DNA from: a virus
Lineage: Duplodnaviria; Caudoviricetes
IMG/VR virus record: IMGVR_UViG_3300044825_003095
Location: 1 to 60,305 of that record
DNA length: 60,305 bases
Reading direction: 5' to 3' (one strand)
The position numbers and the translations under genes were made by a program. The notes beneath the pieces are model-generated. The model did no database searches. It saw only the letters and a program-made list of their open reading frames with translations, and was not told the DNA's origin. Below, piece after piece: positions 3,013 to 60,305 of this stretch (the first letter of the stretch is position 1; each line of letters starts with the position of its first letter).

Positions 3013-3049
3013 CGTCTCGTCTCCTCCCGGCCGGGCCGGGGGTGAGGTG

Positions 3050-43467: not shown

Positions 43468-44595
43468 TCAGAACTGTTGTAGGGTGTTGCCGCCCCGGAA
43501 CGAAGTCATTCGCTCCGGCCACGTCCTCGCGACCAGCGGGGACGCCTGCTCGGACGGACCGCCGGAATCGTACTGCGGGGCGAGCAGCTCGAAGTCCCGC
43601 GACACCTTCGCCATCTTGCGGGCGGCGTCCGTGTCCTCGGTGCCCGCGTCGGACAGGAGGCGGGCGACGATCCGGTCCCGCAGCAGCACGCGGAACTGCG
43701 GCGGGAGCTGCCGCAGCCCGTCGTCGCTCCCGCTGCCGCTCGTGAACGCCGGCGGCGCGATGTAGAACACGACCCACGCCGAGTAGTCCTGGTCGGGCGT
43801 CGGCATCAGGAGCACCTGCTGCTGCCCGCCGACCATCGTGTCGTAGAAGTACCGCGGCCGTCCGGTGGCGCCGTCGAACTGCGCCGCGATCTCGGCGGCG
43901 CGCGTGGCGTCGACCCACCGGACCGGCGTGGTCCATGCGTTCGCCGACTGGTCGTCGGTGGCTCGGATCACGAAGTAGCGCGAGCACAGCGACGACACGA
44001 TGTCGCTGTTGGCGCTCACGATCGATCCGTCCGTCTTGAACGTCACCTTCTGCGGACCGCGGCGGCGGAACCGCCACCACCGCGCCGACCACAGCGTCAC
44101 GAACTCGTCCCGCGCCGCGACGTCGACGTCCCGCGGCTGGATGAACACCGGCGTCCGCTGTCGCACGAGGACCGCCAGCACCGACCGGCGGAGCGTCGAG
44201 ATCGTGACCTCGTCCGACGAGAGCGGCGTCGTCGACTGCCACGCCGCCGCGTACTGCCGCTCGATCGCCTCGAACAGCGGATCGACGTACACCGTCCAGT
44301 GCGCGTGGAAGTCGTTCGGGCTGCGGAACTCCCGCTTGAGCTTCGCGACGGCGATGGCGTGGAACAGCTCGTTCCACTCGGTCGGCAAGTCCTGCGTCGC
44401 CGGGTCGATCTCCGCGTACCACTTCGCGCGGTTCGTGACGTCGGTGAACGCGAACGCGATCTGCGCGTCGACGCTCGCCTTCTGCGTGGTGGACAGGTCG
44501 CCGTACACGACGCTGTTGCCGAACACCTCCGCCACGACGCGCGGCTGGATCGAGGTGACCGTCTCGGCTGTCAGCACCGGCTTCTGCCCGGCCAT
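43468..44595 (-). CDS. Head-tail adaptor/tubular protein A-like
   Basis: GRPRYFY...LMPTPDQDY...LPPQF. Confidence 0.65.
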   Translation of the reverse strand: MAGQKPVLTAETVTSIQPRVVAEVFGNSVVYGDLSTTQKASVDAQIAFAFTDVTNRAKWYAEIDPATQDLPTEWNELFHAIAVAKLKREFRSPNDFHAHWTVYVDPLFEAIERQYAAAWQSTTPLSSDEVTISTLRRSVLAVLVRQRTPVFIQPRDVDVAARDEFVTLWSARWWRFRRRGPQKVTFKTDGSIVSANSDIVSSLCSRYFVIRATDDQSANAWTTPVRWVDATRAAEIAAQFDGATGRPRYFYDTMVGGQQQVLLMPTPDQDYSAWVVFYIAPPAFTSGSGSDDGLRQLPPQFRVLLRDRIVARLLSDAGTEDTDAARKMAKVSRDFELLAPQYDSGGPSEQASPLVARTWPERMTSFRGGNTLQQF

Positions 44596-44609
44596 CGCTC
44601 ATCTCCTCG

Positions 44610-45392
44610 TCACGGGTCGGGGGTCTGCGTCGCCTGGTGCGACCTCGCGTCGCCGATCGGAAGGTCCACCCATCCGGCCGTCGTCGCGACGTCGCGGTTC
44701 TCCTCGGCGTCGTCCGGCGGATCGGCGACCGGGGTCGCGCCGGCGGCTGCGGGAAGATAGACGACGATCAGCCGCGGGCGGTCGGAGATCGGCTGGTACG
44801 GCGTCTCGCTCGACGCCACGTTCCATGCCTGGTTCGACGTGTCCTCGGTCGAGTACCGCAGGATCAGGTTGCAGACCCGGTCGTTGTCGTCGAGCGCGTC
44901 CTGCACCGCGTTCACCAGGCCGGAGATGTCGAAGAACCCCTCGACGATCGGCGCCAGGAACGTCGCGGACGCCGTCCGCTCGTAGTCGCCGCCCGGAACG
45001 ATCCACGGGACGCCGGTGTGCTGCGAGTTCCACGTCGTCTCCAGCGACACGACCTCGACGCCGCTCTTGAGCAGGTGGACCGAGCACGACGACGCGGCCG
45101 GCGCGGCGGACGAGCAGTTGAGCCGCAGCGTGGCGGAGATGATCTTCGAGCCGGCCGGGATGCCGTCCTGCCCGTACATCGCTCCGGACAGGTCGAACCC
45201 GATGATGGTCCTGTAGTGCCCGAACTCGCTGCGAGCGACCGACAGGGCCACGCTTGGGCCGAACGCGGTGTCGGGGTCCGACTGGACGATCGTCGAGTCG
45301 AGCCCCTGGCCGCTGAGCGGTGCGAATTCGATGGTCTGCGACATGGGAAGGTTGGCGGCGAGCGAGAGAACCAGTTGGGCGAGCCAGGTCAT
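44610..45392 (-). CDS. DNRLRE-like domain protein
   Basis: DSTI...FG...RTIIGFDLS...IPAGSKIISATLRL...TWN...W..PGGD...RPRLIVVY. Confidence 0.7.
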   Translation of the reverse strand: MTWLAQLVLSLAANLPMSQTIEFAPLSGQGLDSTIVQSDPDTAFGPSVALSVARSEFGHYRTIIGFDLSGAMYGQDGIPAGSKIISATLRLNCSSAAPAASSCSVHLLKSGVEVVSLETTWNSQHTGVPWIVPGGDYERTASATFLAPIVEGFFDISGLVNAVQDALDDNDRVCNLILRYSTEDTSNQAWNVASSETPYQPISDRPRLIVVYLPAAAGATPVADPPDDAEENRDVATTAGWVDLPIGDARSHQATQTPDP

Positions 45393-45829
45393 TTTCCGAG
45401 GATCTCCTTGTCGTATGTCTGGTCGGAGGCGACGCCCTTCGCCTTGATCGCGGCGATCTCCTCGGGCGTCAGCTTCCAGGAATTCGTGACGATGGTGGCC
45501 ACCTCCACGCCGTCGAACACGAGCGGGACGTAGCCGATGTAGTCGAGAAGGTCGGACCAGTTCGCCGCCGCGGTCGCGTCGAGCCGGGCGCGCTGCTTCG
45601 CGATCAGCGGCACGACGAGGTTCTTGACCGGCTGCGTGAGGTCGCCGCCCTCCTTCATCTGGACGACGGTGTCCTGCTCGAGCGTGACGACGGCGCGGAG
45701 CGTGGCCCAGTTCTGCTGCGGCGTCGACTTCGGGTTGTCGACGACCGGACCGCCCGTGCTGCACGCCAGCGGGATCAGCAGCAGCGAGACGAGGGCGGTG
45801 GTGACGATGGCGGGGATCAGGCGGTGCAT
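45389..45829 (-). CDS. Lipoprotein (possible o-spanin-like)
   Basis: Signal peptide ending in lipobox PLAC. Confidence 0.65.
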   Translation of the reverse strand: MHRLIPAIVTTALVSLLLIPLACSTGGPVVDNPKSTPQQNWATLRAVVTLEQDTVVQMKEGGDLTQPVKNLVVPLIAKQRARLDATAAANWSDLLDYIGYVPLVFDGVEVATIVTNSWKLTPEEIAAIKAKGVASDQTYDKEILGK

Positions 45830-46089
45830 GGCGGAGTCTCCTTGGTTGCGGGGTCGCGCGCCTCGTGGCGGGCGATCGCGGCGTTGAACAGCATCATGGC
45901 CTCGTCCAGCTTCTCGAGCGCCCGCTCCTGCTCGCGCGACGCGGGCGTCCGGTCGATGCAGTAGTCGGCGCACGTGCGGATCATGTGGCGCACCTGGCCG
46001 TATCGCTCGGCCTGGTCCGCGACCGGCGGGTGATGGTTGAACCGATGGACCAGCTCGTCGGTGGTTGGCTTCGGAATCTTGGGGCTCAT
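45817..46089 (-). CDS. Acb2/Tad1-like hairpin-domain protein (putative immune-signal sponge)
   Basis: RFNHHPP...ERY..VR...TPASREQERALEKLDEAMMLFNAAIAR. Confidence 0.75.
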   Translation of the reverse strand: MSPKIPKPTTDELVHRFNHHPPVADQAERYGQVRHMIRTCADYCIDRTPASREQERALEKLDEAMMLFNAAIARHEARDPATKETPPCTA

Positions 46090-46244
46090 CGTTTACACCG
46101 GCTCCTTGCCTGGAGGTCCGCCTTCCCCGACCTGCGCCTGAGCCACACCCAGGCGACCGTCAGGAGGAACGCGACGGCCTCGAACAGGTGATCCTTCGCG
46201 TACATCAGCCATTCGAGGACGAGGATCGCCGTGTCGATGGCCAC
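46086..46244 (-). CDS. 52-aa membrane protein (holin-like)
   Basis: Translated by hand: VAIDTAILVLEWLMYAKDHLFEAVAFLLTVAWVWLRRRSGK...; below the ORF track cutoff. Confidence 0.55.
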   Translation of the reverse strand: MAIDTAILVLEWLMYAKDHLFEAVAFLLTVAWVWLRRRSGKADLQARSRCKR

Positions 46245-46253
46245 ATGGCGATG

Positions 46254-46796
46254 CTACGGCTTCGGCGCCGCGCCGAACTGCACCGACCGGAGGAGCGACT
46301 CGATCTGGTCGAGCCGCCGCGTGGACTCCGCGAGCGTCGCGATGATGGTCCGCATCTCGGAGATCGACTGCGCCTGCGCCTCGAGCCGCGCGTTGGTCGC
46401 CGCCTGGTACGACATCGCCTGCGTGGCCGTGTAGCGGTCGCCGCTGACGGACGAGATCTGCGCCCCGAGCTTCGTCAGGTCGCTGCTCATGGCCTGGAGC
46501 GTCGCCTCGACCCTGGCGCCGAGCTCGAGGAACTTCTCCGTGCGGGACTCGAGCTTGTCCGTCCGCTCCTTGAGCAGCGACGTGTCCTTCGCCACGTTCG
46601 CGGCGAGGTCGGCGATCGCCTTGTCGTGGGCGTCCACCTTCCCACGCACGGTGAAGATCGCGACCACGCCGCTGAGCATCGCCGCGCCGATCACGGTCGC
46701 GAGCGGGCTCATCATCTTCGACCAAGGGCTCTCCGGCCGCTCGGTGACGACGAGCTGGTTGCTGTTGGCGACGTCGTCCTGTTGTCGGTGTGGCAT
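46254..46796 (-). CDS. Membrane-anchored coiled-coil protein (lysis-related)
   Basis: One TM helix followed by a long coiled coil. Confidence 0.65.
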   Translation of the reverse strand: MPHRQQDDVANSNQLVVTERPESPWSKMMSPLATVIGAAMLSGVVAIFTVRGKVDAHDKAIADLAANVAKDTSLLKERTDKLESRTEKFLELGARVEATLQAMSSDLTKLGAQISSVSGDRYTATQAMSYQAATNARLEAQAQSISEMRTIIATLAESTRRLDQIESLLRSVQFGAAPKP

Positions 46797-46797
46797 G

Positions 46798-47208
46798 TCA
46801 GTGCCTCCTGCCAGCCATTTCCATCGCCTGACACCACAGGGCGTCGTTCGGCTTGCCCGGCGCGTTGCTCACCGTCACCCACACGCCGTCGAAGGTGACG
46901 AGGTCGATCTCCCAGTGCGGAACTGGTTCGTCCCACACCAGCACGCTCTGGAGCGTGCCAGGAGCCCCGATTGGCGGAGGCGGAGCCGTCGGCTGCGTGG
47001 GAGGCGGGTAGCACTCGAAATGGCACGACGGGTTCAGGCCGCCCGTGAACGTGACCGATCGCACCCCGCCGGGGCACGCCCGGATCGCCTGATCGACGCA
47101 TCCTGCCAGCGTGTCGATGCCTGGGGCCGGCGCATCCGGCGGCTGGCCGCGGGCCGCAACCGTCGAGGCGGCGAAGATCAGCACGAGGGCTGGGGCTCGG
47201 GTGGTCAC
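46798..47208 (-). CDS. Secreted Cys-motif protein
   Basis: Signal peptide; CVDQAIRACPGGV...CHFEC. Confidence 0.65.
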   Translation of the reverse strand: MTTRAPALVLIFAASTVAARGQPPDAPAPGIDTLAGCVDQAIRACPGGVRSVTFTGGLNPSCHFECYPPPTQPTAPPPPIGAPGTLQSVLVWDEPVPHWEIDLVTFDGVWVTVSNAPGKPNDALWCQAMEMAGRRH

Positions 47209-47423
47209 GCCCCGATCCTATCGCACGGAAGGCCGCGCCGTTCGACCCAGCCCGCCAAGGCGTCCACAATCTCGGGCGGAAGCCCGTTGAACTCCACCGA
47301 CGGAACCCCGCCGTCGTCGGCGAGCTTGACCGTCAGCGTGCTGTGGCCCCGCCCTCGCGTCAGCCGTATCTCCGTGGCGTGGCCGCGGACGATCCTCGCC
47401 TCGAACCGGGTGATCTTCTTCAC
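47205..47423 (-). CDS. Small hypothetical protein
   Basis: SD AAGGAGA, GTG start. Confidence 0.6.
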   Translation of the reverse strand: MKKITRFEARIVRGHATEIRLTRGRGHSTLTVKLADDGGVPSVEFNGLPPEIVDALAGWVERRGLPCDRIGA

Positions 47424-47977
47424 GCCGTCTCCTTGACCGCGCACCAGTCGCTCGCCGCGGCCCTGGCCAGCGTGCCGGGGTCGGTGGCCGCGACCGCGAC
47501 CGCCAGCGCCGCCCAGTGGTGCGTGGAGATGCACGACAGCGGTCCAGGCATGGCGACGATCTTCTTCGCCTTGTTGCCCTTCACGCCGAGCGCCTTGGCC
47601 TCGCCGCCCCACATCAGGATCAGCTCCTCGCGCACGCGCTTGTCGTCGGCCGCCGAAGTCCCGCAGAGGAACTCCTTCACGAAGCGGCGCCGGATTCCGA
47701 CGACCCCGATTTGGCTTGGAGCAAAGGCCAGCCGCTCGACCAGCCGTCCCGTCTCGAACACGGTCCTGAACGACGCATCGCTCAACGACTGGCCGCGCGG
47801 CTCGAACTGCTCGAACGCCACGAGCGGCCGATCGTCAGAACAGGTCGCCGATCGCAGTTGCGACAGCATGGACAATTCGTTCACGATGTCCGCGGTCCAC
47901 TTCCTCCGATCCAGCCGAACGATCGCATGCGACGTCGGACTCGGATCGACTCCGTAGATGATTCCGGAGTCGATCAT
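47420..47977 (-). CDS. ruvC: RuvC-like nuclease/resolvase
   Basis: IYGVDP...VAFE...TVFETG...VKEFLCG...D...WAALAVA. Confidence 0.8.
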   Translation of the reverse strand: MIDSGIIYGVDPSPTSHAIVRLDRRKWTADIVNELSMLSQLRSATCSDDRPLVAFEQFEPRGQSLSDASFRTVFETGRLVERLAFAPSQIGVVGIRRRFVKEFLCGTSAADDKRVREELILMWGGEAKALGVKGNKAKKIVAMPGPLSCISTHHWAALAVAVAATDPGTLARAAASDWCAVKETA

Positions 47978-48684
47978 CGCGTCGCGTCCTCCGTTGCCGC
48001 CGGCGCCTTGCCGTCCCCGACGAACTCCCACGGGCTGATGTGCGTCTGGTGGCCCAGGTACTCGATCGCGTACGGCGCCCGCAGCGGAAGCCCCTCGAGC
48101 TCCCGCCACACGTGCAGCAGGTGCGACAGGAACATCTTGGCGATGTACCGCAGCGCCATGTTGTTGATGCGCCCGAGCGACCACTCCGGAACCTCCTTCG
48201 GCGGCGGCGGGATCACGGCGCCGTCCGGGGCGTGCGCCACCTTCCACTTCACCCCGGCCTCCTTGCGGCCAGTCTCGTCGTCGAGGATCTCCTCGCCGGT
48301 GGCGCCGCCGGCCTTCCAGATGATGCTGCCCTTGTTCAGCTCCCGCTCGACGATGCGCGCCTTGTAGCGGTCGTACAGGTCGCGGTACGGCCCGCCGGCC
48401 TTCACGAACGACTGCGCGATCTTCCACGCCGTCACCTTGAGCTGGTCGTTCCAGTTGGACTTCGCGCCCTTGCGGCGGCGCACGCACCGGCCGTCGATCA
48501 CGTGCAGGCCCGCGTACGCCCACAGCTTCGCGGCGTTGTCGAACTTCGCCGGGCTGCCGATCAGGGCGATCAGCAGGCCGCTCAGGCGCGGTCCGATGCC
48601 GCGCACCTTTCCGAGCGCAAAGGTTCGCAAGCGTTCTTCGGGTGGCAAGTGATCCGCGGCTATCACTGGGGCTTTGGGCGTCAA
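47974..48684 (-). CDS. Nop/IS110-like RNA-binding protein (TIGR-associated TasA-like), N-terminally truncated or minimal
   Basis: VRGIGP...LIALIG...F..AAKLWAYAGL...RRRKG...NWN..LK...Y..YK...ALRYIAKMFLSHL..VWRELEGLP...PY...YLGH. No N-terminal coil or DEDD domain, no clear SD. Confidence 0.8.
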   Translation of the reverse strand: MTPKAPVIAADHLPPEERLRTFALGKVRGIGPRLSGLLIALIGSPAKFDNAAKLWAYAGLHVIDGRCVRRRKGAKSNWNDQLKVTAWKIAQSFVKAGGPYRDLYDRYKARIVERELNKGSIIWKAGGATGEEILDDETGRKEAGVKWKVAHAPDGAVIPPPPKEVPEWSLGRINNMALRYIAKMFLSHLLHVWRELEGLPLRAPYAIEYLGHQTHISPWEFVGDGKAPAATEDATR

Positions 48685-48773
48685 GTCAACAATGGATCAC
48701 AAATGGACTTCTGGTTGCATGGTTTTATTGGTTCGCAACGTCGAAACGGGAGACACTTCTTCTTTGGCTACGG
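48621..48773 (-). ncRNA. TIGR-like tandem dual-spacer guide array (four 36-nt units)
   Basis: 9-nt TG-N4-CC-N repeats alternate with unique 9-nt spacers at exact 18-nt period, abutting the Tas-like gene. Confidence 0.82.
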
Positions 48774-49571
48774 CTGCGGCAGGGCGTCCCAGTCCAGCAG
48801 CCACTCGACGCACAATCGCGTCTCCGCCTCGGCAGTTCCGGGCGGCACAAGTCCGTGCGACTCGGCGTCCTGCGTCCCGGCGCTCCACAGCCACAGGCGG
48901 TCCTCGGCGTGCCGCGCCCGAGACATGAACTCCCACTGCGTGAGCAACGGCTCGTTCCACTGGCCCAGCCGGTGCTGGCACACGACGAGCACGCGGGCAA
49001 GGTCGGGAAGGTGCCTCGCGGCCCACTCCATCGCCAGGCGGTCGCGGGCGTCCTCGATCGCCGTGTTGCCGACGTACTGGTCGTAGCCGCGCACGCACAC
49101 CCACCCCTGCATGCGGGAGAGCATCATGTGCCGCGCCCACCGCTCCTCGAGCTCGAGCAGCTCGGCGACCGTGGCCGTCAGCAGCGACTTCCACACCGTC
49201 CCGTCGCCGACCGGGAAGTACATCGGCACGTCGTCGATGGACCACTGCGCCAGCTTCGCGCCGGTGCGCATGCCGTCGTTCATGGAGAACGGGAGCATGA
49301 GCTCGTACAGCGCGGGCTCGTAGCCGGCCTGCGCCTTCGCCAGCGTCTCGTCCTCGCGGTCGATGAACGCAAGTTCGCCGCACGGGATCGACGACAGCGC
49401 CTCGGCCAGCTTGCCGACCTGCACGACGCCGCCGACCTTGAGGTTGTGCCAGTAGACCGCGCGGCCGAGGCGAACATCCACGCCGGAATCCCGCAACGGG
49501 TCGAACACCGCGCTCGGAACCAGCTTCGGAAGCTGGGCCTTGTCGAGCAGGTCCACGAACAGGGTTTTCAT
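48768..49571 (-). CDS. Hypothetical protein
   Basis: MKTLFVDLLDK..., coupled to the ATPase gene. Confidence 0.7.
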   Translation of the reverse strand: MKTLFVDLLDKAQLPKLVPSAVFDPLRDSGVDVRLGRAVYWHNLKVGGVVQVGKLAEALSSIPCGELAFIDREDETLAKAQAGYEPALYELMLPFSMNDGMRTGAKLAQWSIDDVPMYFPVGDGTVWKSLLTATVAELLELEERWARHMMLSRMQGWVCVRGYDQYVGNTAIEDARDRLAMEWAARHLPDLARVLVVCQHRLGQWNEPLLTQWEFMSRARHAEDRLWLWSAGTQDAESHGLVPPGTAEAETRLCVEWLLDWDALPQP

Positions 49572-50815
49572 GGCGCCACCTCGCCGCCGACCAGCCGGCC
49601 CTCTCGGATCGTGAACCCGACATCCTCGCCGTTGGTCACGAGCTCCCGCCAGATCTGGATCCCGTGCTCCGCGGCCAGCTTCGTCAGTTGGGCGACCGTC
49701 GCGTCGTCGCACAGCGACCCGTCGCGGATGAACATGACCTGCGCGTTCGGGTTCAGCGCCATGCCGACGGCGACGCTCACCGCGATCTGCTCCGCGGTCG
49801 AGCACTGGTCGAGCGGCGTGCCGTGCAGCGTCGGCCCGGCCTGCGAGAACGCCAACCCGTCGATGGGGAGCGCCGACTTCGCGAGCCGGCGACGCACCGA
49901 ATCCTCGAGCAGCTCCATCTCCGAGGTCATGTCCTCCGACTGCGCCTCCAGCGCAGCGACGGACTTCGCAAGCGCGTCGCGCTCGTTGTTCTGCCGCACC
50001 TTCGCGTTGTGCGCCTCGATCTCGCGCATGCGCTCCTGGATCGCCGTCGTCTCGCTGGGCGGATCGCCCTTCGCGGCCTCCGTCGCCTCGCGGAGCTTCT
50101 GCTCGTGCTCCGCCAGCTCGCGCTCGACGCCGCTCAACGCCTGCTTGAGCCGCTCGACATCCTCCCGCGACTTCGTCACCAGCCGCGACACGGTGTCGCG
50201 CTGCCGGATGCGGTCGTCGTACTCGCGACGCGCGGCAGCCGCCTTCTCGATCGCATCCCGCATCGAGTCGGCGCTGAGCTCGGCGTCGGCTCCCGGATGC
50301 CGCGGCATCGCGTCGAGCCGGGCCTTCTCCGACTTCACCCGTCGGTTCACGTCGGTCCTGCGCTCGTACAGCTCCTTCACGTCGGCCTGGTGCTTCTCCA
50401 GGTCGATGCCGCCGAGCCGGGCCAGCACGGCGTTCTGGTTGGCGGGCTTGTCCGAGATGAACGACACCGGGTTGAACGTGCGGTCGCCGAACAACCGCTC
50501 CAGCGCCTCCTGCCCGCGGCCGACGGTCGTGCCGTCGATGGTCCGCACCTTGAGGTAGTAGTTGCCCGCCTCCGTCCACTTGCCGACGGCGCGGAGGCCC
50601 GGCACGTCGAGCTCGACCTCCGCCTCCTCCGCGCCTTCGTGGATCGGCTTCGACGGATGCGACCGCTTTCCGAACACGACTGCCTCGACCGCCTTGAACG
50701 CCGACGACTTGCCGGCGCCGTTGGGGCCGCTGATCGTGACGACCGGACCCTGCGGCCTGATCTCGAGGTCCGTGAGTCCCATGAAGTTCGTGACCTTCAA
50801 CCGTTCGATTGGCAC
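49568..50815 (-). CDS. SMC/SbcC-like coiled-coil ABC ATPase
   Basis: Walker A GPNGAGKSS, coiled coil, CSTAEQ signature, MFIRDGS Walker B. Confidence 0.85.
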   Translation of the reverse strand: MPIERLKVTNFMGLTDLEIRPQGPVVTISGPNGAGKSSAFKAVEAVVFGKRSHPSKPIHEGAEEAEVELDVPGLRAVGKWTEAGNYYLKVRTIDGTTVGRGQEALERLFGDRTFNPVSFISDKPANQNAVLARLGGIDLEKHQADVKELYERRTDVNRRVKSEKARLDAMPRHPGADAELSADSMRDAIEKAAAARREYDDRIRQRDTVSRLVTKSREDVERLKQALSGVERELAEHEQKLREATEAAKGDPPSETTAIQERMREIEAHNAKVRQNNERDALAKSVAALEAQSEDMTSEMELLEDSVRRRLAKSALPIDGLAFSQAGPTLHGTPLDQCSTAEQIAVSVAVGMALNPNAQVMFIRDGSLCDDATVAQLTKLAAEHGIQIWRELVTNGEDVGFTIREGRLVGGEVAP

Positions 50816-51252
50816 GCCTCACCGCCTTTTCTCTTGGATGCCGACGCGACGACCTGCTCGGCGTCGGCGTTGGACAGGACGAAGCCGAGCTCCTGCTCGA
50901 CCAACCTCTGAAACGCCTGGCACAGCTCCGGCTCGTACATCGGCCGCAGCCGATCGAGCATCTTCCCGGCCTTGCGACCCGCAGCCGCCACGTCGGTCGC
51001 CAGCGCCGGCCTGAGGCGCGGCCTGCCGATCCACCGGACGACGGGGCTGATCCTGTAGCGTCGCCACTCCGACTCGAGGCGGTCGGCCGCCGACCTGATC
51101 GCCGAACGGCCGACCGCCCGCTTCCGCTTGCAGTCCACGCGCTGCTGCTCGGCGGCGTCCTCGTACGACGTGGCGCTCATGGCCAGCCGCGTGTAGTGGC
51201 GGCGCACCCATTCCTCGAGCGCCGACTTGTCCTCCCGCTTGATCTGCGGCAT
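50797..51252 (-). CDS. Hypothetical protein
   Basis: MPQIKREDK... fills the gap between recT and the ATPase. Confidence 0.55.
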   Translation of the reverse strand: MPQIKREDKSALEEWVRRHYTRLAMSATSYEDAAEQQRVDCKRKRAVGRSAIRSAADRLESEWRRYRISPVVRWIGRPRLRPALATDVAAAGRKAGKMLDRLRPMYEPELCQAFQRLVEQELGFVLSNADAEQVVASASKRKGGEACQSNG

Positions 51253-51254
51253 TC

Positions 51255-52511
51255 CTACAGCCTCCAGTCCGGTGCGGCGATCTTCTCGGCGAACCTCGCC
51301 CACTTGGCGTCGTCGCGCATGTCGCGCGTCTCGATCTTGTGGTCGCCGAGGTAGTCGAGCACGGCCTCCTTCGCCGCCTCCGCGTTGTCGAACTTCCGCA
51401 CCTGCATGAACCGCTCGGCGGCGACGCCCAGCCGCTCGGTGAGCGTCTTGGCCGCGAGCAGCTTCTCCGCGACCTTGTTGCCGGACTCCGGCTTCGACTC
51501 CGTCGTCGGCGGCGCCTCGTCGGGCACCTCGGGCTCGGGAGCCGGGCCGCTCGCGGCCGGCGCCTGCGTCGCCACGACCTCTCGCGCCGCCTTCGTCTCG
51601 CGCACGCGACGCACCGTGCTCTCCGTCCGCGACTTCGGCGCGGCCTCCTGCTGCCCGGCGGCGTCGTCGTTCCGGTCGTCCTCGACCGCGCCTTCCTCCA
51701 TCGCCTCTCGCCCGCCGAGATCCTTGAGGTCGGCGCCGAGCTGCGCCGCGATCATCGCCGTGTCCACGCCGTCGCCGGACTCCTCGCCGTCGGACAGCGC
51801 GACGCCGAGCGACAGGTCGGGGGTCTGCGGCAGCCAGTTGCACATGCGACGCACGCCCGACTTGAGCATCATCGCGATCTCGTCGGTCGCCCACGCGGAC
51901 TTCTCCCGCTGCCACTCGGGCATCTTGGCGACGGCGCGCGCCTTGATGCCGTCGAGCTCGGCGCGGGTCAGGACGCGGAACGCCGTGCGCCCCGTCTTGA
52001 ACGTCGCGACGCAGTAGACGTGCGTGAGCTTCTCGATCACTCGCAGCGATCCGGTCGGCTCGTGCTCGATCGTCGGGTTGGAGCCGAGCATCACGCGGAA
52101 CCTGTCGCCCTCGAACACCGCGTACGGCTGGATCGTCTCCACCGTCCCGGTGCGGTAGGCGATCTCCATCAGCCCGCGGTAGCCGGGGATGAACTGCGCC
52201 TCGAGGATCTTGATCCACTTGTCGCCGCGCTTCTCGCTGCGGTTGAACGGGACCAGGTAGCCCTGGCCACCGATCCCCGTCGGGTCGAGCCCGAGCTGCG
52301 TCGCGGCCATCACGCTCGTCAGCACCGAGATCGGCGTGCAGTCGGCCAGCTTCGGCTGGCGAGACAGCAGCGCACCGACGATGCGCACCATCCGCTCGGC
52401 CGTCAGGTGCTTGCTCGCGACGGCCGCGAACGCGCCCTGCTTGGACTGCATGTACTTCACGAGCGCCGAAACCTTGCTCGGCGCCGGCGCCATCGGGACA
52501 GTCTCGCTCAT
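51255..52511 (-). CDS. recT: RecT-family ssDNA annealing protein
   Basis: KHLTAERM...PKLADCTP.S...LGLDP...GQGYLVPF...AQFIPGYRGL...W.TD...M..K...RR...LP. Confidence 0.92.
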   Translation of the reverse strand: MSETVPMAPAPSKVSALVKYMQSKQGAFAAVASKHLTAERMVRIVGALLSRQPKLADCTPISVLTSVMAATQLGLDPTGIGGQGYLVPFNRSEKRGDKWIKILEAQFIPGYRGLMEIAYRTGTVETIQPYAVFEGDRFRVMLGSNPTIEHEPTGSLRVIEKLTHVYCVATFKTGRTAFRVLTRAELDGIKARAVAKMPEWQREKSAWATDEIAMMLKSGVRRMCNWLPQTPDLSLGVALSDGEESGDGVDTAMIAAQLGADLKDLGGREAMEEGAVEDDRNDDAAGQQEAAPKSRTESTVRRVRETKAAREVVATQAPAASGPAPEPEVPDEAPPTTESKPESGNKVAEKLLAAKTLTERLGVAAERFMQVRKFDNAEAAKEAVLDYLGDHKIETRDMRDDAKWARFAEKIAAPDWRL

Positions 52512-59632: not shown

Positions 59633-60305
59633 GGGCCGACGCTCTCCGCAATCTCGGCTTCCGCCAGCCGCTTCATGTCGGCCATCGCGGCATCGTTGGA
59701 ATCGAAGAACCGGGTCATCGGAACGGCGTGCGGAGAGCTGGCCCGGTAGATCATGCTTGCCGCGAGCGGCGTGTCGAATCGCTTCTCCAGTGCGTAGCCA
59801 GCCTCTCCAGCGAGATGCACAACGTGTCCAGCGCGGCAGTGCGTCGTGTTGCACCGATGCCATATCGACATGTCGAGCGCCCCCGGAACGCTGACCGCTT
59901 CCAACACGCGCTGATGGATGTTCTCGATCTTCGGCACTTCCACCGGGGCCTGCTGTGCTGGGCTCCAGCCCGAGCAGTCCGAGCAGCGCGAGCAGTCCGA
60001 GCAGCGCGAGCAGTGCGAGCAGTCCGAGCAGCGCGAGCAGTCCGAGCAGCGCGAGCAGTGCGAGCAGTCCGAGCAGTGCGAGCAGTCCGAGCAGTGCGAG
60101 CAGTCCGAGCACTCCGAGCAGCCCGAGCAGCCCGAGCAGCCCGAGCAGCGCGAGCAGCGCGAGCAGTGCGAGCAGTCCGAGCAGTGCGAGCAGTCCGAGC
60201 ACTCCGAGCAGCCCGAGCAGCCCGAGCAGCCCGAGCAGCGCGAGCAGCGCGAGCAGTCCGAGCAGCGCGAGCAGCGCGAGCAGTCCGAGCAGCCCGAGCA
60301 GCCCG
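59629..60305 (-). CDS. 3' part of Cys-Ser-X repeat protein, with C-terminal WHxCxTTHCRAG domain
   Basis: CSx repeats read in frame into WSPAQQAPVEVPKIENIHQ...LDMSIWHRCNTTHCRAGHVVHLAG. Confidence 0.85.
   Translation of the reverse strand, partial: GCSGCSDCSRCSRCSDCSRCSRCSGCSGCSGCSECSDCSHCSDCSHCSRCSRCSGCSGCSGCSECSDCSHCSDCSHCSDCSHCSRCSDCSRCSDCSHCSRCSDCSRCSDCSGWSPAQQAPVEVPKIENIHQRVLEAVSVPGALDMSIWHRCNTTHCRAGHVVHLAGEAGYALEKRFDTPLAASMIYRASSPHAVPMTRFFDSNDAAMADMKRLAEAEIAESVGP

Follow-up and report, generated by a model that had tools for sequence, protein, structure and literature searches.

The window analysed here, i.e. the whole of IMG/VR virus record IMGVR_UViG_3300044825_003095 (Duplodnaviria; Caudoviricetes), is a complete phage genome of 60,305 bp with terminal repeats and a GC content of 68.6%. 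On its minus strand, a short array of alternating repeats and spacers reaches the 5' end of a gene encoding a Nop-domain protein, and together the two resemble a dual-repeat TIGR-Tas locus (Table 1). TIGR-Tas systems were described in 2025, and the published accounts present their natural roles, targets and array dynamics as still open (PMC12045711; 10.64898/2026.09.09.750476). A preliminary description of this DNA, based on its letters alone, had proposed a TIGR array of four 36-nucleotide (nt) dual-spacer units. Our analysis bears this out: a tas gene adjoins the array, arrays of the same geometry accompany related tas genes, and a covariance model built from those relatives finds the units. 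The working effector that was assumed at the same time is not supported, as the Tas protein of the window is without the coiled-coil dimerisation domain.

Read on the minus strand, the array opens on an edge repeat truncated at its 5' end, continues with four rounds of spacer A, loop repeat, spacer B and edge repeat, and ends on the full terminal edge TGCGAACCT. Repeats and spacers are all 9 nt long, giving units of 36 nt with an 18-nt period that is kept in 8/8 slots. The sequence of positions 48773-48621 had been transcribed exactly in the preliminary description, which had also pointed to eight TG dinucleotides at 18-nt spacing and to CC at repeat positions 7-8 in seven of the eight repeats. 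The run of eight TG starts at 48755 and is the longest of period 18 in the window if the 9-nt tandem repeats at the window ends are set aside, the next longest comprising four. TG-N4-CC occupied 7/8 slots of the array; off the array, the maximum was 2/8 on the plus strand, and 3/8 was seen solely in frames overlapping the array. As a control, 200 dinucleotide-preserving shuffles of positions 301-59900 were scored. Their best TG-N4-CC value was 2/8 in 154 shuffles and 3/8 in 46 and never exceeded 3/8, and their best TG value was 4/8 in 54, 5/8 in 138 and 6/8 in 8 shuffles. The observed pattern exceeds all 200.

At the level of single repeats, box D (UG) is present in 8/8, box C is represented by CC at positions 7-8 in 7/8, and the ninth base is A in three, G in four and T in one. 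CCG is likewise common in two high-GC relatives (L007, L008). The alternation of edge-like and loop-like repeats noticed earlier was recovered by eye: even repeats are nearer the family edge consensus TGCGAGCCA, with 1, 2, 3 and 2 mismatches, and odd repeats carry C at position 6 in 4/4 cases, as do the loop repeats of relatives. Spacers are unique and AT-rich, again as first described, with a mean pairwise identity of 0.32 and a GC content of 0.43 vs 0.686 for the genome. The stretch from 48672 to 48771 (GC 0.46) is the second-lowest 100-nt stretch of the genome in GC content. Tandem Repeats Finder did not report the array, in line with the earlier view that its repeats are too degenerate for repeat finders. 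A search of Rfam gave 0 matches for the array at E values up to 1, and the array RNA folded no better than shuffled sequences (z +1.1), as expected of TIGR arrays.

The first edge repeat contains the TAG stop codon (48770-48768) of the upstream open reading frame (ORF), and truncated opening edges are also found in arrays of relatives (GCGTAGCCA in L003, GAGGAGCCA in L002). A truncated first edge is described for TIGR arrays (PMC12045711), whose expected end is a 3'-truncated edge followed by a terminator. The last edge of the window is full-length and is followed by tas, and in relatives L002 and L004, too, the array upstream of tas closes on a complete TGCGAACC. More generally, an edge that is the last of its array or the last before tas often has A at position 6, giving TGCGAACC in place of TGCGAGCC (L002 2734-2742, L004 2752-2760, L008 3872-3880, L020 225-233, window 48629-48621). 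Position 6 of the terminal edge is part of no guide RNA (tigRNA), which may explain this variant. No terminator-like site was found on the minus strand at the locus. A sigma-70-like promoter was not found in 47300-49700 either, and we therefore assume that the array is co-transcribed with the upstream genes.

We considered whether there is no guide array at all and chance or codon usage gave an AT-rich intergenic leader, together with the first codons of an ORF, a period of 18 nt. The fact that 64 nt of the array fall within the longest open frame of tas would fit this explanation, as would the missing stable fold and Rfam family. It is at odds, however, with the 7/8 slots observed, which no shuffle approached. 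In addition, none of the three frames stays open from 48770 to 48697, the base composition of the overlapped codons is non-coding-like (see below), and the array adjoins a tas gene. Relatives of that gene are accompanied by this repeat family too, with register and strand unchanged. We therefore give this explanation next to no credence.

The longest ORF of the tas gene encodes 236 residues from TTG 48684, and database calls start at GTG 48666 (230 aa) or TTG 48630 (218 aa). The gene thus begins within or right after the array, and homology to relatives sets in at codon 24 (CTC, 48615-48613). Sequence searches matched the protein to TaTasR (9mty_A, E 1.2e-26), to TasH (21kl_A, E 4.8e-10), to the Pfam family PF02371 (E 3.3e-5) and to phrog_4285, the latter only over profile positions 104-275 of 277. 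An AlphaFold model (mean predicted local distance difference test (pLDDT) score 80.5) returned TasR and TasH as top Foldseek matches, both with a probability of 1.00. When aligned with VIA-align, residues 14-227 of the model were predicted to superpose on TasR 167-322 (Z 17.4, root-mean-square deviation 1.6 Å, 143 aligned residues, 41% identity). The modelled similarity to TasH was comparable in score (Z 16.9, 29% identity over the aligned part), and the IS621 and ISCro4 recombinases scored Z 11.7-12.3 on the same model. Because the protein has no nuclease domain, we assign it to the TasA type.

Residues Y205 and H212 align without gaps with Y289 and H296 of SpTasH, which are described as the residues cutting pre-tigRNA (PMC13421893), and R194, R202 and E208 align with SpTasH residues required for pre-tigRNA processing. 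The Tyr/His pair is reportedly conserved in dual-repeat systems only (10.64898/2026.09.09.750476). Among 15 sequences compared, Y205 was nearly invariant and H212 invariant. For the part of tas that is homologous to relatives, the GC content at third codon positions (GC3) amounts to 0.97, compared with 0.62 for codons 1-21 of the long ORF, where the frame offset of the first row was corrected by hand. Based on the value of 0.97, tas is a long-standing coding gene in a high-GC lineage. The array-encoded "N-terminus" of the long ORF is not coding sequence. This adjoining tas gene, of which the preliminary description made no mention, constitutes the strongest independent support for a TIGR array.

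To place the array among its relatives, we collected DNA of 87 related loci, of which IMG/VR supplied 13, metagenomes 69 and genomes 5, some being one contig from two collections. Chains of at least four TG-N4-CC at an 18-nt period were found on the tas strand in 44/87 loci and on the opposite strand in 0/87. We counted 47 distinct arrays with at least six TG-N4-CC matches, 42 of which have the edge consensus TGCGAGCCA, and 45 the edge start TGCGAGCC. Their loop repeats read TGA-purine-N-C/A-CC-A/G. Spacers are unrelated both within and between loci, at pairwise identities of 0.13-0.39, which is the opposite of the codon-like conservation that had been named as evidence against an array. The closest relatives, P0002-P0045, are metagenomic TasA proteins of 50-58% identity, some of them from metagenome-assembled genomes (MAGs) of Planctomycetota, which also provide the nearest named relatives of the window Tas. 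The locus belongs to a well-populated TasA clade with a TGCGAGCCA edge.

Covariance model R1 was built solely from 122 units of these relatives and recovered the four window units in the correct register. Its best unrelated match in the 60 kb scored 14.8 bits and was a partial alignment that skipped most of the model. No fifth unit was detected on either side, the model giving 2.1 bits upstream, where the preceding ORF ends, and 2.7 bits downstream in tas. The boundaries of the predicted tigRNAs assume that processing takes place between edge positions 4 and 5. In predicted tigRNA 1, spacer A would occupy 48764-48756, the loop 48755-48747 and spacer B 48746-48738. Predicted tigRNA 4 lies inside the longest tas frame, upstream of its coding-like part. 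Arrays that run into tas are known: they can be intragenic or reach the annotated 5' end of tas at some loci (10.64898/2026.09.09.750476). We observed a further case in three relatives of 41% identity (L024 1394-1600, L025 1370-1576, L027 641-847), where the variable insertion of the Nop domain, and thus the open frame of tas, contains a dual-repeat array of 12 slots, and a second array is located upstream of tas.

The window Tas differs from its relatives at the N-terminus. The family profile matches it only from position 88 of 286, and the closest relatives, at 260-340 aa, begin with some 87 conserved residues which the window protein is without. In a model of relative P0006 (mean pLDDT 90.2), helices are predicted at residues 2-30 and 36-65 of this part, and residues 1-257 align to TasR 111-321 (Z 21.7), compared with TasR 167-322 only for the window model. 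The missing stretch corresponds to the coiled-coil, which is described as the dimer interface of TasH, TasR and TasA and as the support on which guide-target duplexes rest; dimerisation by coiled-coil is stated for all Tas proteins in these accounts (PMC12045711; PMC13421893; 10.64898/2026.08.11.744272). Among the relatives' ORFs, 71/87 match the N-terminal part of the profile, 4 are cut by contig ends, and of the 12 others all but L061, L070 and L088 have at least 50 residues upstream. Two of these, L070 744-1427 and L061 226-795, enter the profile no earlier than positions 82 and 54 and have 10-11 residues ahead of that point. Truncation may have occurred in these ORFs as well, or they may be frame-shifted or mis-assembled, and no dual-repeat array was detected on these two short contigs.

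A six-frame search of the window with the N-terminal part (the first 90 profile positions of relatives) found no such part, the best E value being 0.13 at 6271-5201. Likewise, tblastn of the first 86 residues of relative P0099 against the window gave a best E value of 0.32, elsewhere. Both searches rule out the upstream ORF as donor of the missing coiled-coil, and no second Tas or other coiled-coil donor was found in the genome.

The 90% identity cluster of the window Tas comprises four members, which shed light on the age of this loss. One is the window's own call (218 aa, TTG 48630), another comes from a second JGI contig (218 aa, one substitution), and a third from a Logan contig (230 aa from GTG 48666). 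The truncated form is thus present in three assemblies. Since the first residues of the Logan protein are encoded by array units 3-4, the truncation junction is independently reproduced. The fourth member, P0099, is found on 11 contigs, has 299 aa, covers family profile positions 7-278 and contains the coiled-coil. Window residues 24-236 agree with residues 87-299 of P0099 at 212/213 positions. The window gene has thus lost the first 86 codons, which encode the coiled-coil hairpin, and the deletion reaches exactly to the last edge repeat: codon L24 (48615) immediately follows the break and is only a few bases away from that repeat. Given this near-identity of a full-length allele, the sequence comparison indicates that the loss of the coiled-coil is derived and recent. 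The divergence of the window repeats must long predate so recent a deletion, and the repeats would therefore have diverged alongside a full-length TasA.

This bears on how the degeneracy of the array is to be understood. Boxes C and D are kept at 31/32 positions, and interior edge positions differ from the family consensus in 6/16 cases (by eye). A second feature that is kept is a closing pair, in which position 6 of an edge is matched to position 3 of the edge that follows it, and which is Watson-Crick in 4/4 units. Positions 3 and 6 inside one repeat would pair in 0/4, and the closing pair is the only variable position pair across neighbouring edges to reach 4/4. In the alignment, columns 7-38 are C:G in 4/4 units and columns 6-39 are G:C in two, A:U in one and U:A in one; sliding the register by 1-3 columns leaves 25-67% paired. 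In the 122 units of relatives, the closing pair is G:C in 116, A:U in 2, G:U in 2 and unpaired in 2. Successive edges of relatives give C:G in 242/251 cases, and 6 of the other 9 still pair. The family edge TGCGAGCCA itself offers two natural pair candidates, G2:C7 and C3:G6. In the TasR structure, one edge base pair beyond the box C/D pair has been described, formed between different edge halves of one processed tigRNA and supported by covariation (PMC12045711); our assignment of the pairing bases in that structure follows the text of the paper.

The pairing pattern fits selection on individual tigRNAs rather than neutral decay, although the statistics are modest. Because only the boxes and the closing pair are kept, with neighbouring edges co-varying in such a way that each unit closes, the comparison points to a fixed, small and long-maintained guide set rather than a fast-turnover array. 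An alternative is that array and tas are an old relic, long non-functional, and that the degeneracy of the repeats is the result of neutral decay. Within-class repeat identity in the window is indeed 0.66 vs a median of 0.91 in relatives, there are just four units, tas is truncated and no targets were found. Decay should, however, strike boxes and interiors alike, yet 31/32 box positions are kept vs 10/16 interior ones, and closing pairs are compensated in every unit. Neither does the tas gene look decayed, with its GC3 of 0.97, no stop codon and conserved catalytic residues. The spacers have not drifted from a GC content of 0.43 to the 0.686 of the genome, and the recent truncation places the divergence of the repeats in the time when a full-length Tas was present. 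Decay of this kind therefore seems very unlikely to us.

Based on these findings, we favor, with a probability of roughly 0.6, the interpretation that the phage carries a genuine dual-repeat TIGR-TasA locus, that its effector was recently truncated and is probably impaired, and that the array is intact but possibly orphaned. Several observations weigh against it. Two concern single units: the loop of unit 2, TGCAACCAG, is the sole slot of eight without CC at positions 7-8, its box C being shifted or altered, and unit 4 (12.6 bits) scores below the best unrelated match of the model. The within-class repeat identity is the second lowest of 48 arrays (window plus 47), the minimum among the relatives being 0.59. 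With only four units, 40/500 column shuffles also give 100% pairing, and 2/122 units of relatives tolerate a mismatch at the closing pair. For the full-length allele, which was compared at the protein level, both the condition of the array and the ends of the deletion are inferred. Finally, none of the four units has a self-target in the window at three or fewer mismatches in either joint orientation, and the wider searches described below found no target.

It is also conceivable that the locus is the same but that the coiled-coil-less Tas is still functional together with its array, either as two monomers, each on one box C/D site of a tigRNA, or by processing or sequestering tigRNAs and so interfering with the full-length system that sister phages bring in on co-infection. 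In favor of this, all 213 codons of the truncated allele are intact, the Tyr/His dyad and the RNA-contact residues are still there, the allele occurs in three separate assemblies, one with an amino-acid change, in what is here a complete genome, and the array with its boxes and closing pairs is intact. This has to be set against the published accounts, in which every characterised Tas dimerises by a coiled-coil that carries the guide-target duplexes (PMC12045711; PMC13421893; 10.64898/2026.08.11.744272), and against the relatives, 71/87 of which match the N-terminal profile and most of whose 12 non-matching members have at least 50 residues upstream. Moreover, at 99.5% identity to the full-length allele, intactness may merely reflect recency, and the genome has no second Tas or coiled-coil donor. 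A working truncated protein is thus possible but unlikely. Quite unlikely, in our view, is a more specific proposal, in which the four guides form a fixed, selected regulatory set with its own closing pair in each unit and the coiled-coil-less TasA is a working variant co-circulating with the 99.5%-identical allele. The protein would then either bind and process tigRNAs as a monomer acting on half-sites or, as a dominant-negative "anti-TIGR", titrate away the guides of co-infecting sister phages.

For the recently truncated TIGR-TasA locus that we favor, a mechanism can be outlined by analogy with the described systems. The array would be transcribed from the minus strand with the surrounding operon, and in every 9-nt repeat the Nop domain of Tas would bind both box D (UG) and box C (CC-purine). 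Cleavage inside the edge repeats by the conserved Tyr/His pair would then release four 36-nt tigRNAs, with two base pairs linking the 5' end of each to its 3' end. In the ancestral TasA dimer, one tigRNA would recognise an 18-bp site of the form 5'-spacer A-revcomp(spacer B)-3', its spacers A and B each pairing with a different strand. Because TasA is without a nuclease, it may act by blocking transcription or replication at this site. In the present genome, the missing dimerisation domain probably cripples the target step, and processing might survive.

In the search for self-targets, which covered both joint orientations of all four units at up to four mismatches, four sites were found at four mismatches, three of them in the array itself and one at 7211-7194. 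When 251 units of relatives were compared with 404,285 bases of loci and window, 0 exact matches were obtained in both orientations and in two control orientations. The joint orientation of spacer A followed by the reverse complement of spacer B was then inferred from the strand numbering in the text of PMC13421893. Exact scans of IMG/VR yielded 5 matches for unit 1, in unrelated coding contexts with a GC content of 0.45-0.66, and 2 for unit 2, on contigs with a GC content of 0.34-0.36. Units 3 and 4 had 0 matches in IMG/VR. We read the matches of units 1 and 2 as chance. The suggestion that the guides are directed against foreign, lower-GC DNA is still a guess.

Compared with known systems, the locus has the defining features of dual-repeat TIGR-Tas and does not establish a new kind of system. 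As in the dual-repeat TIGR-TasA loci described in PMC12045711 and 10.64898/2026.09.09.750476, a nuclease-less Nop protein adjoins an array of 36-nt units made of 9-nt edge and loop repeats and 9-nt spacers. Box D (UG) opens the repeats and box C (CC-purine) closes them, the array begins on a 5'-truncated edge and lies on the tas strand, and the Tyr/His processing dyad is present. The array also reaches the annotated 5' end of tas, as reported for some loci (10.64898/2026.09.09.750476). The main difference lies in the repeats, which are described as conserved within a locus in published arrays (PMC12045711). In the window, edge and loop repeats are not conserved and are near random outside the boxes, and the edges vary by unit with compensating closing pairs. 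Furthermore, the window has 4 units compared with the 5-15 given as commonest (PMC12045711), no terminator-like site was found after its array, and its Tas is without the coiled-coil. The relatives P0002-P0045 have canonical TGCGAGCCA edge arrays upstream or downstream of tas. These arrays are longer (up to 34 slots) and uniform, and both these relatives and P0099 have the N-terminal helical hairpin of 86-87 residues that is absent from the window Tas.

With TaTasR (PDB 9MTY) and SpTasH (PDB 9W03, 9W04, 21KL) the window protein shares the Nop fold and sequence, and the locus the repeat logic of UG...CCA plus an extra closing pair in the edge (PMC12045711). It differs from both in having no RuvC, HNH or coiled-coil and in starting at the equivalent of TasR residue 167; spacers of SpTasH are 8 nt long (10.64898/2026.08.11.744272). 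A more distant likeness exists to the IS110/IS621 bridge-RNA recombinases and to Nop5 of archaeal box C/D small ribonucleoproteins, which have the Nop/Transposase_20 RNA-binding fold (PF02371) and guides with two spacers flanked by box C/D-like motifs (PMC12045711). The window system, in contrast, has neither a DEDD/RuvC nor a serine recombinase part, bridge RNA, K-turn/L7Ae and fibrillarin are absent from it, and its guides are arrayed and 36 nt long. Finally, a tandem repeat-spacer array next to an effector gene, presumably cut into unit guides by analogy with described TIGR systems, is reminiscent of CRISPR. The conserved 25-36-nt repeats, similar-size spacers and cas genes of CRISPR-Cas are not found here, however. 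Instead, two 9-nt repeats alternate, split 9+9-nt spacers would read opposite DNA strands, and the neighbours are an SbcC-like ATPase and ORFs without assigned function, with no cas gene or known adaptation module.

Table 1. Features of the TIGR-TasA locus and its surroundings (window coordinates)
Feature	Position	Strand	Basis or remark
Dual-repeat TIGR array	48621..48773	minus	Periodicity against shuffles; covariance model from relatives
5'-truncated first edge repeat CCGTAGCCA	48765..48773	minus	AGCCA alone fits the family edge; model alignment opens at model position 5
Predicted tigRNA 1, 36 nt	48734..48769	minus	17.0 bits; closing pair G:C
Predicted tigRNA 2, 36 nt	48698..48733	minus	26.0 bits, E 5e-4, top model match of the window; closing pair A:U
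Predicted tigRNA 3, 36 nt	48662..48697	minus	21.4 bits; closing pair U:A
Predicted tigRNA 4, 36 nt	48626..48661	minus	12.6 bits; closing pair G:C
tasA-type gene, Nop domain only	47974..48684	minus	PDB, Pfam, PHROG and structure matches
Upstream ORF, 263 aa	48768..49559	minus	Context only; stop codon in the first edge repeat
Downstream ORF, 176 aa	47420-47950	minus	Directly downstream of tas
SbcC-like ATPase	49568-50815	minus	phrog_1499, E 3e-71; two genes upstream of tas

The genes next to the system were characterized as far as matches allowed. A GC3 of 0.94 indicates that the ORF upstream of the array is a real gene, for which we found no Pfam match (residues from 49500 on), no PHROG match, no usable Atlas match and no relatives in IMG/VR. 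The 176-aa ORF downstream of tas had no Pfam, PHROG or PDB sequence match. Its nearest ESM-Atlas clusters are viral hypothetical proteins, and the nearest Pfam-bearing cluster (score 0.91) has RuvC (PF02075) on 20% of its members. The ORF may encode a RuvC-like resolvase beside the nuclease-less Tas. No homologue of it was found beside tas in the 87 loci of relatives. A homologue of the SbcC-like ATPase, 29-30% identical, is located downstream of tas in one other phage lineage (L006 4938-6146, L022, L023).

Close relatives of the phage itself were not found, either by megablast of 44000-52000 against GenBank phages or in IMG/VR, where Tas alone and the ORFs on its two sides served as queries. 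More distant Tas-like proteins occur in known phages, and Mycobacterium phages account for 83/87 matching phage records. An example is Bethlehem (L089, NC_009878.1 45995-46702), whose gp71 carries the annotation "transposase" or hypothetical. This Tas-like protein of 235 aa has a helical part at its N-terminus and 34-38% identity to window residues 16-113. A palindrome-rich gap of 335 nt lies upstream of it. No dual-repeat array was detected near gp71, and a stem-loop-type array beside this gene is possible. The best GenBank phage match to the whole window Tas is a hypothetical protein of Microcystis phage Mvi-JY20 (L090, PP438412.1 21367-22092; 30% identity over 83%), and a weak TG-N4-CC signal in 3 of 6 slots was seen just downstream, at 3046.

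Both ends of the record (7-215 and 59966-60305) consist of a 9-nt tandem repeat of about 23 and 38 copies, respectively, with 87-90% matches. On the minus strand, this repeat encodes a (Cys-Ser-X)n tract in an ORF starting near 310 (MTTWIKDANG...), which runs on from the other record end into a normal-looking C-terminal part. The "direct terminal repeat" of the record may thus simply be this tandem repeat, leaving copy number and circularity uncertain.

In conclusion, the locus is a worked example of an array that is too degenerate for repeat-based finders and yet recognisable by its box C/D periodicity and the adjoining tas gene. Covariation of closing pairs within the array represents sequence-level evidence of selection on single units, and small phage arrays of this kind can be fixed guide sets rather than fast-turnover memories. 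Further, the natural pair of a full-length and a coiled-coil-less allele, identical at 212/213 positions, offers a ready test of the part played by the dimerisation domain in processing, binding and repression.

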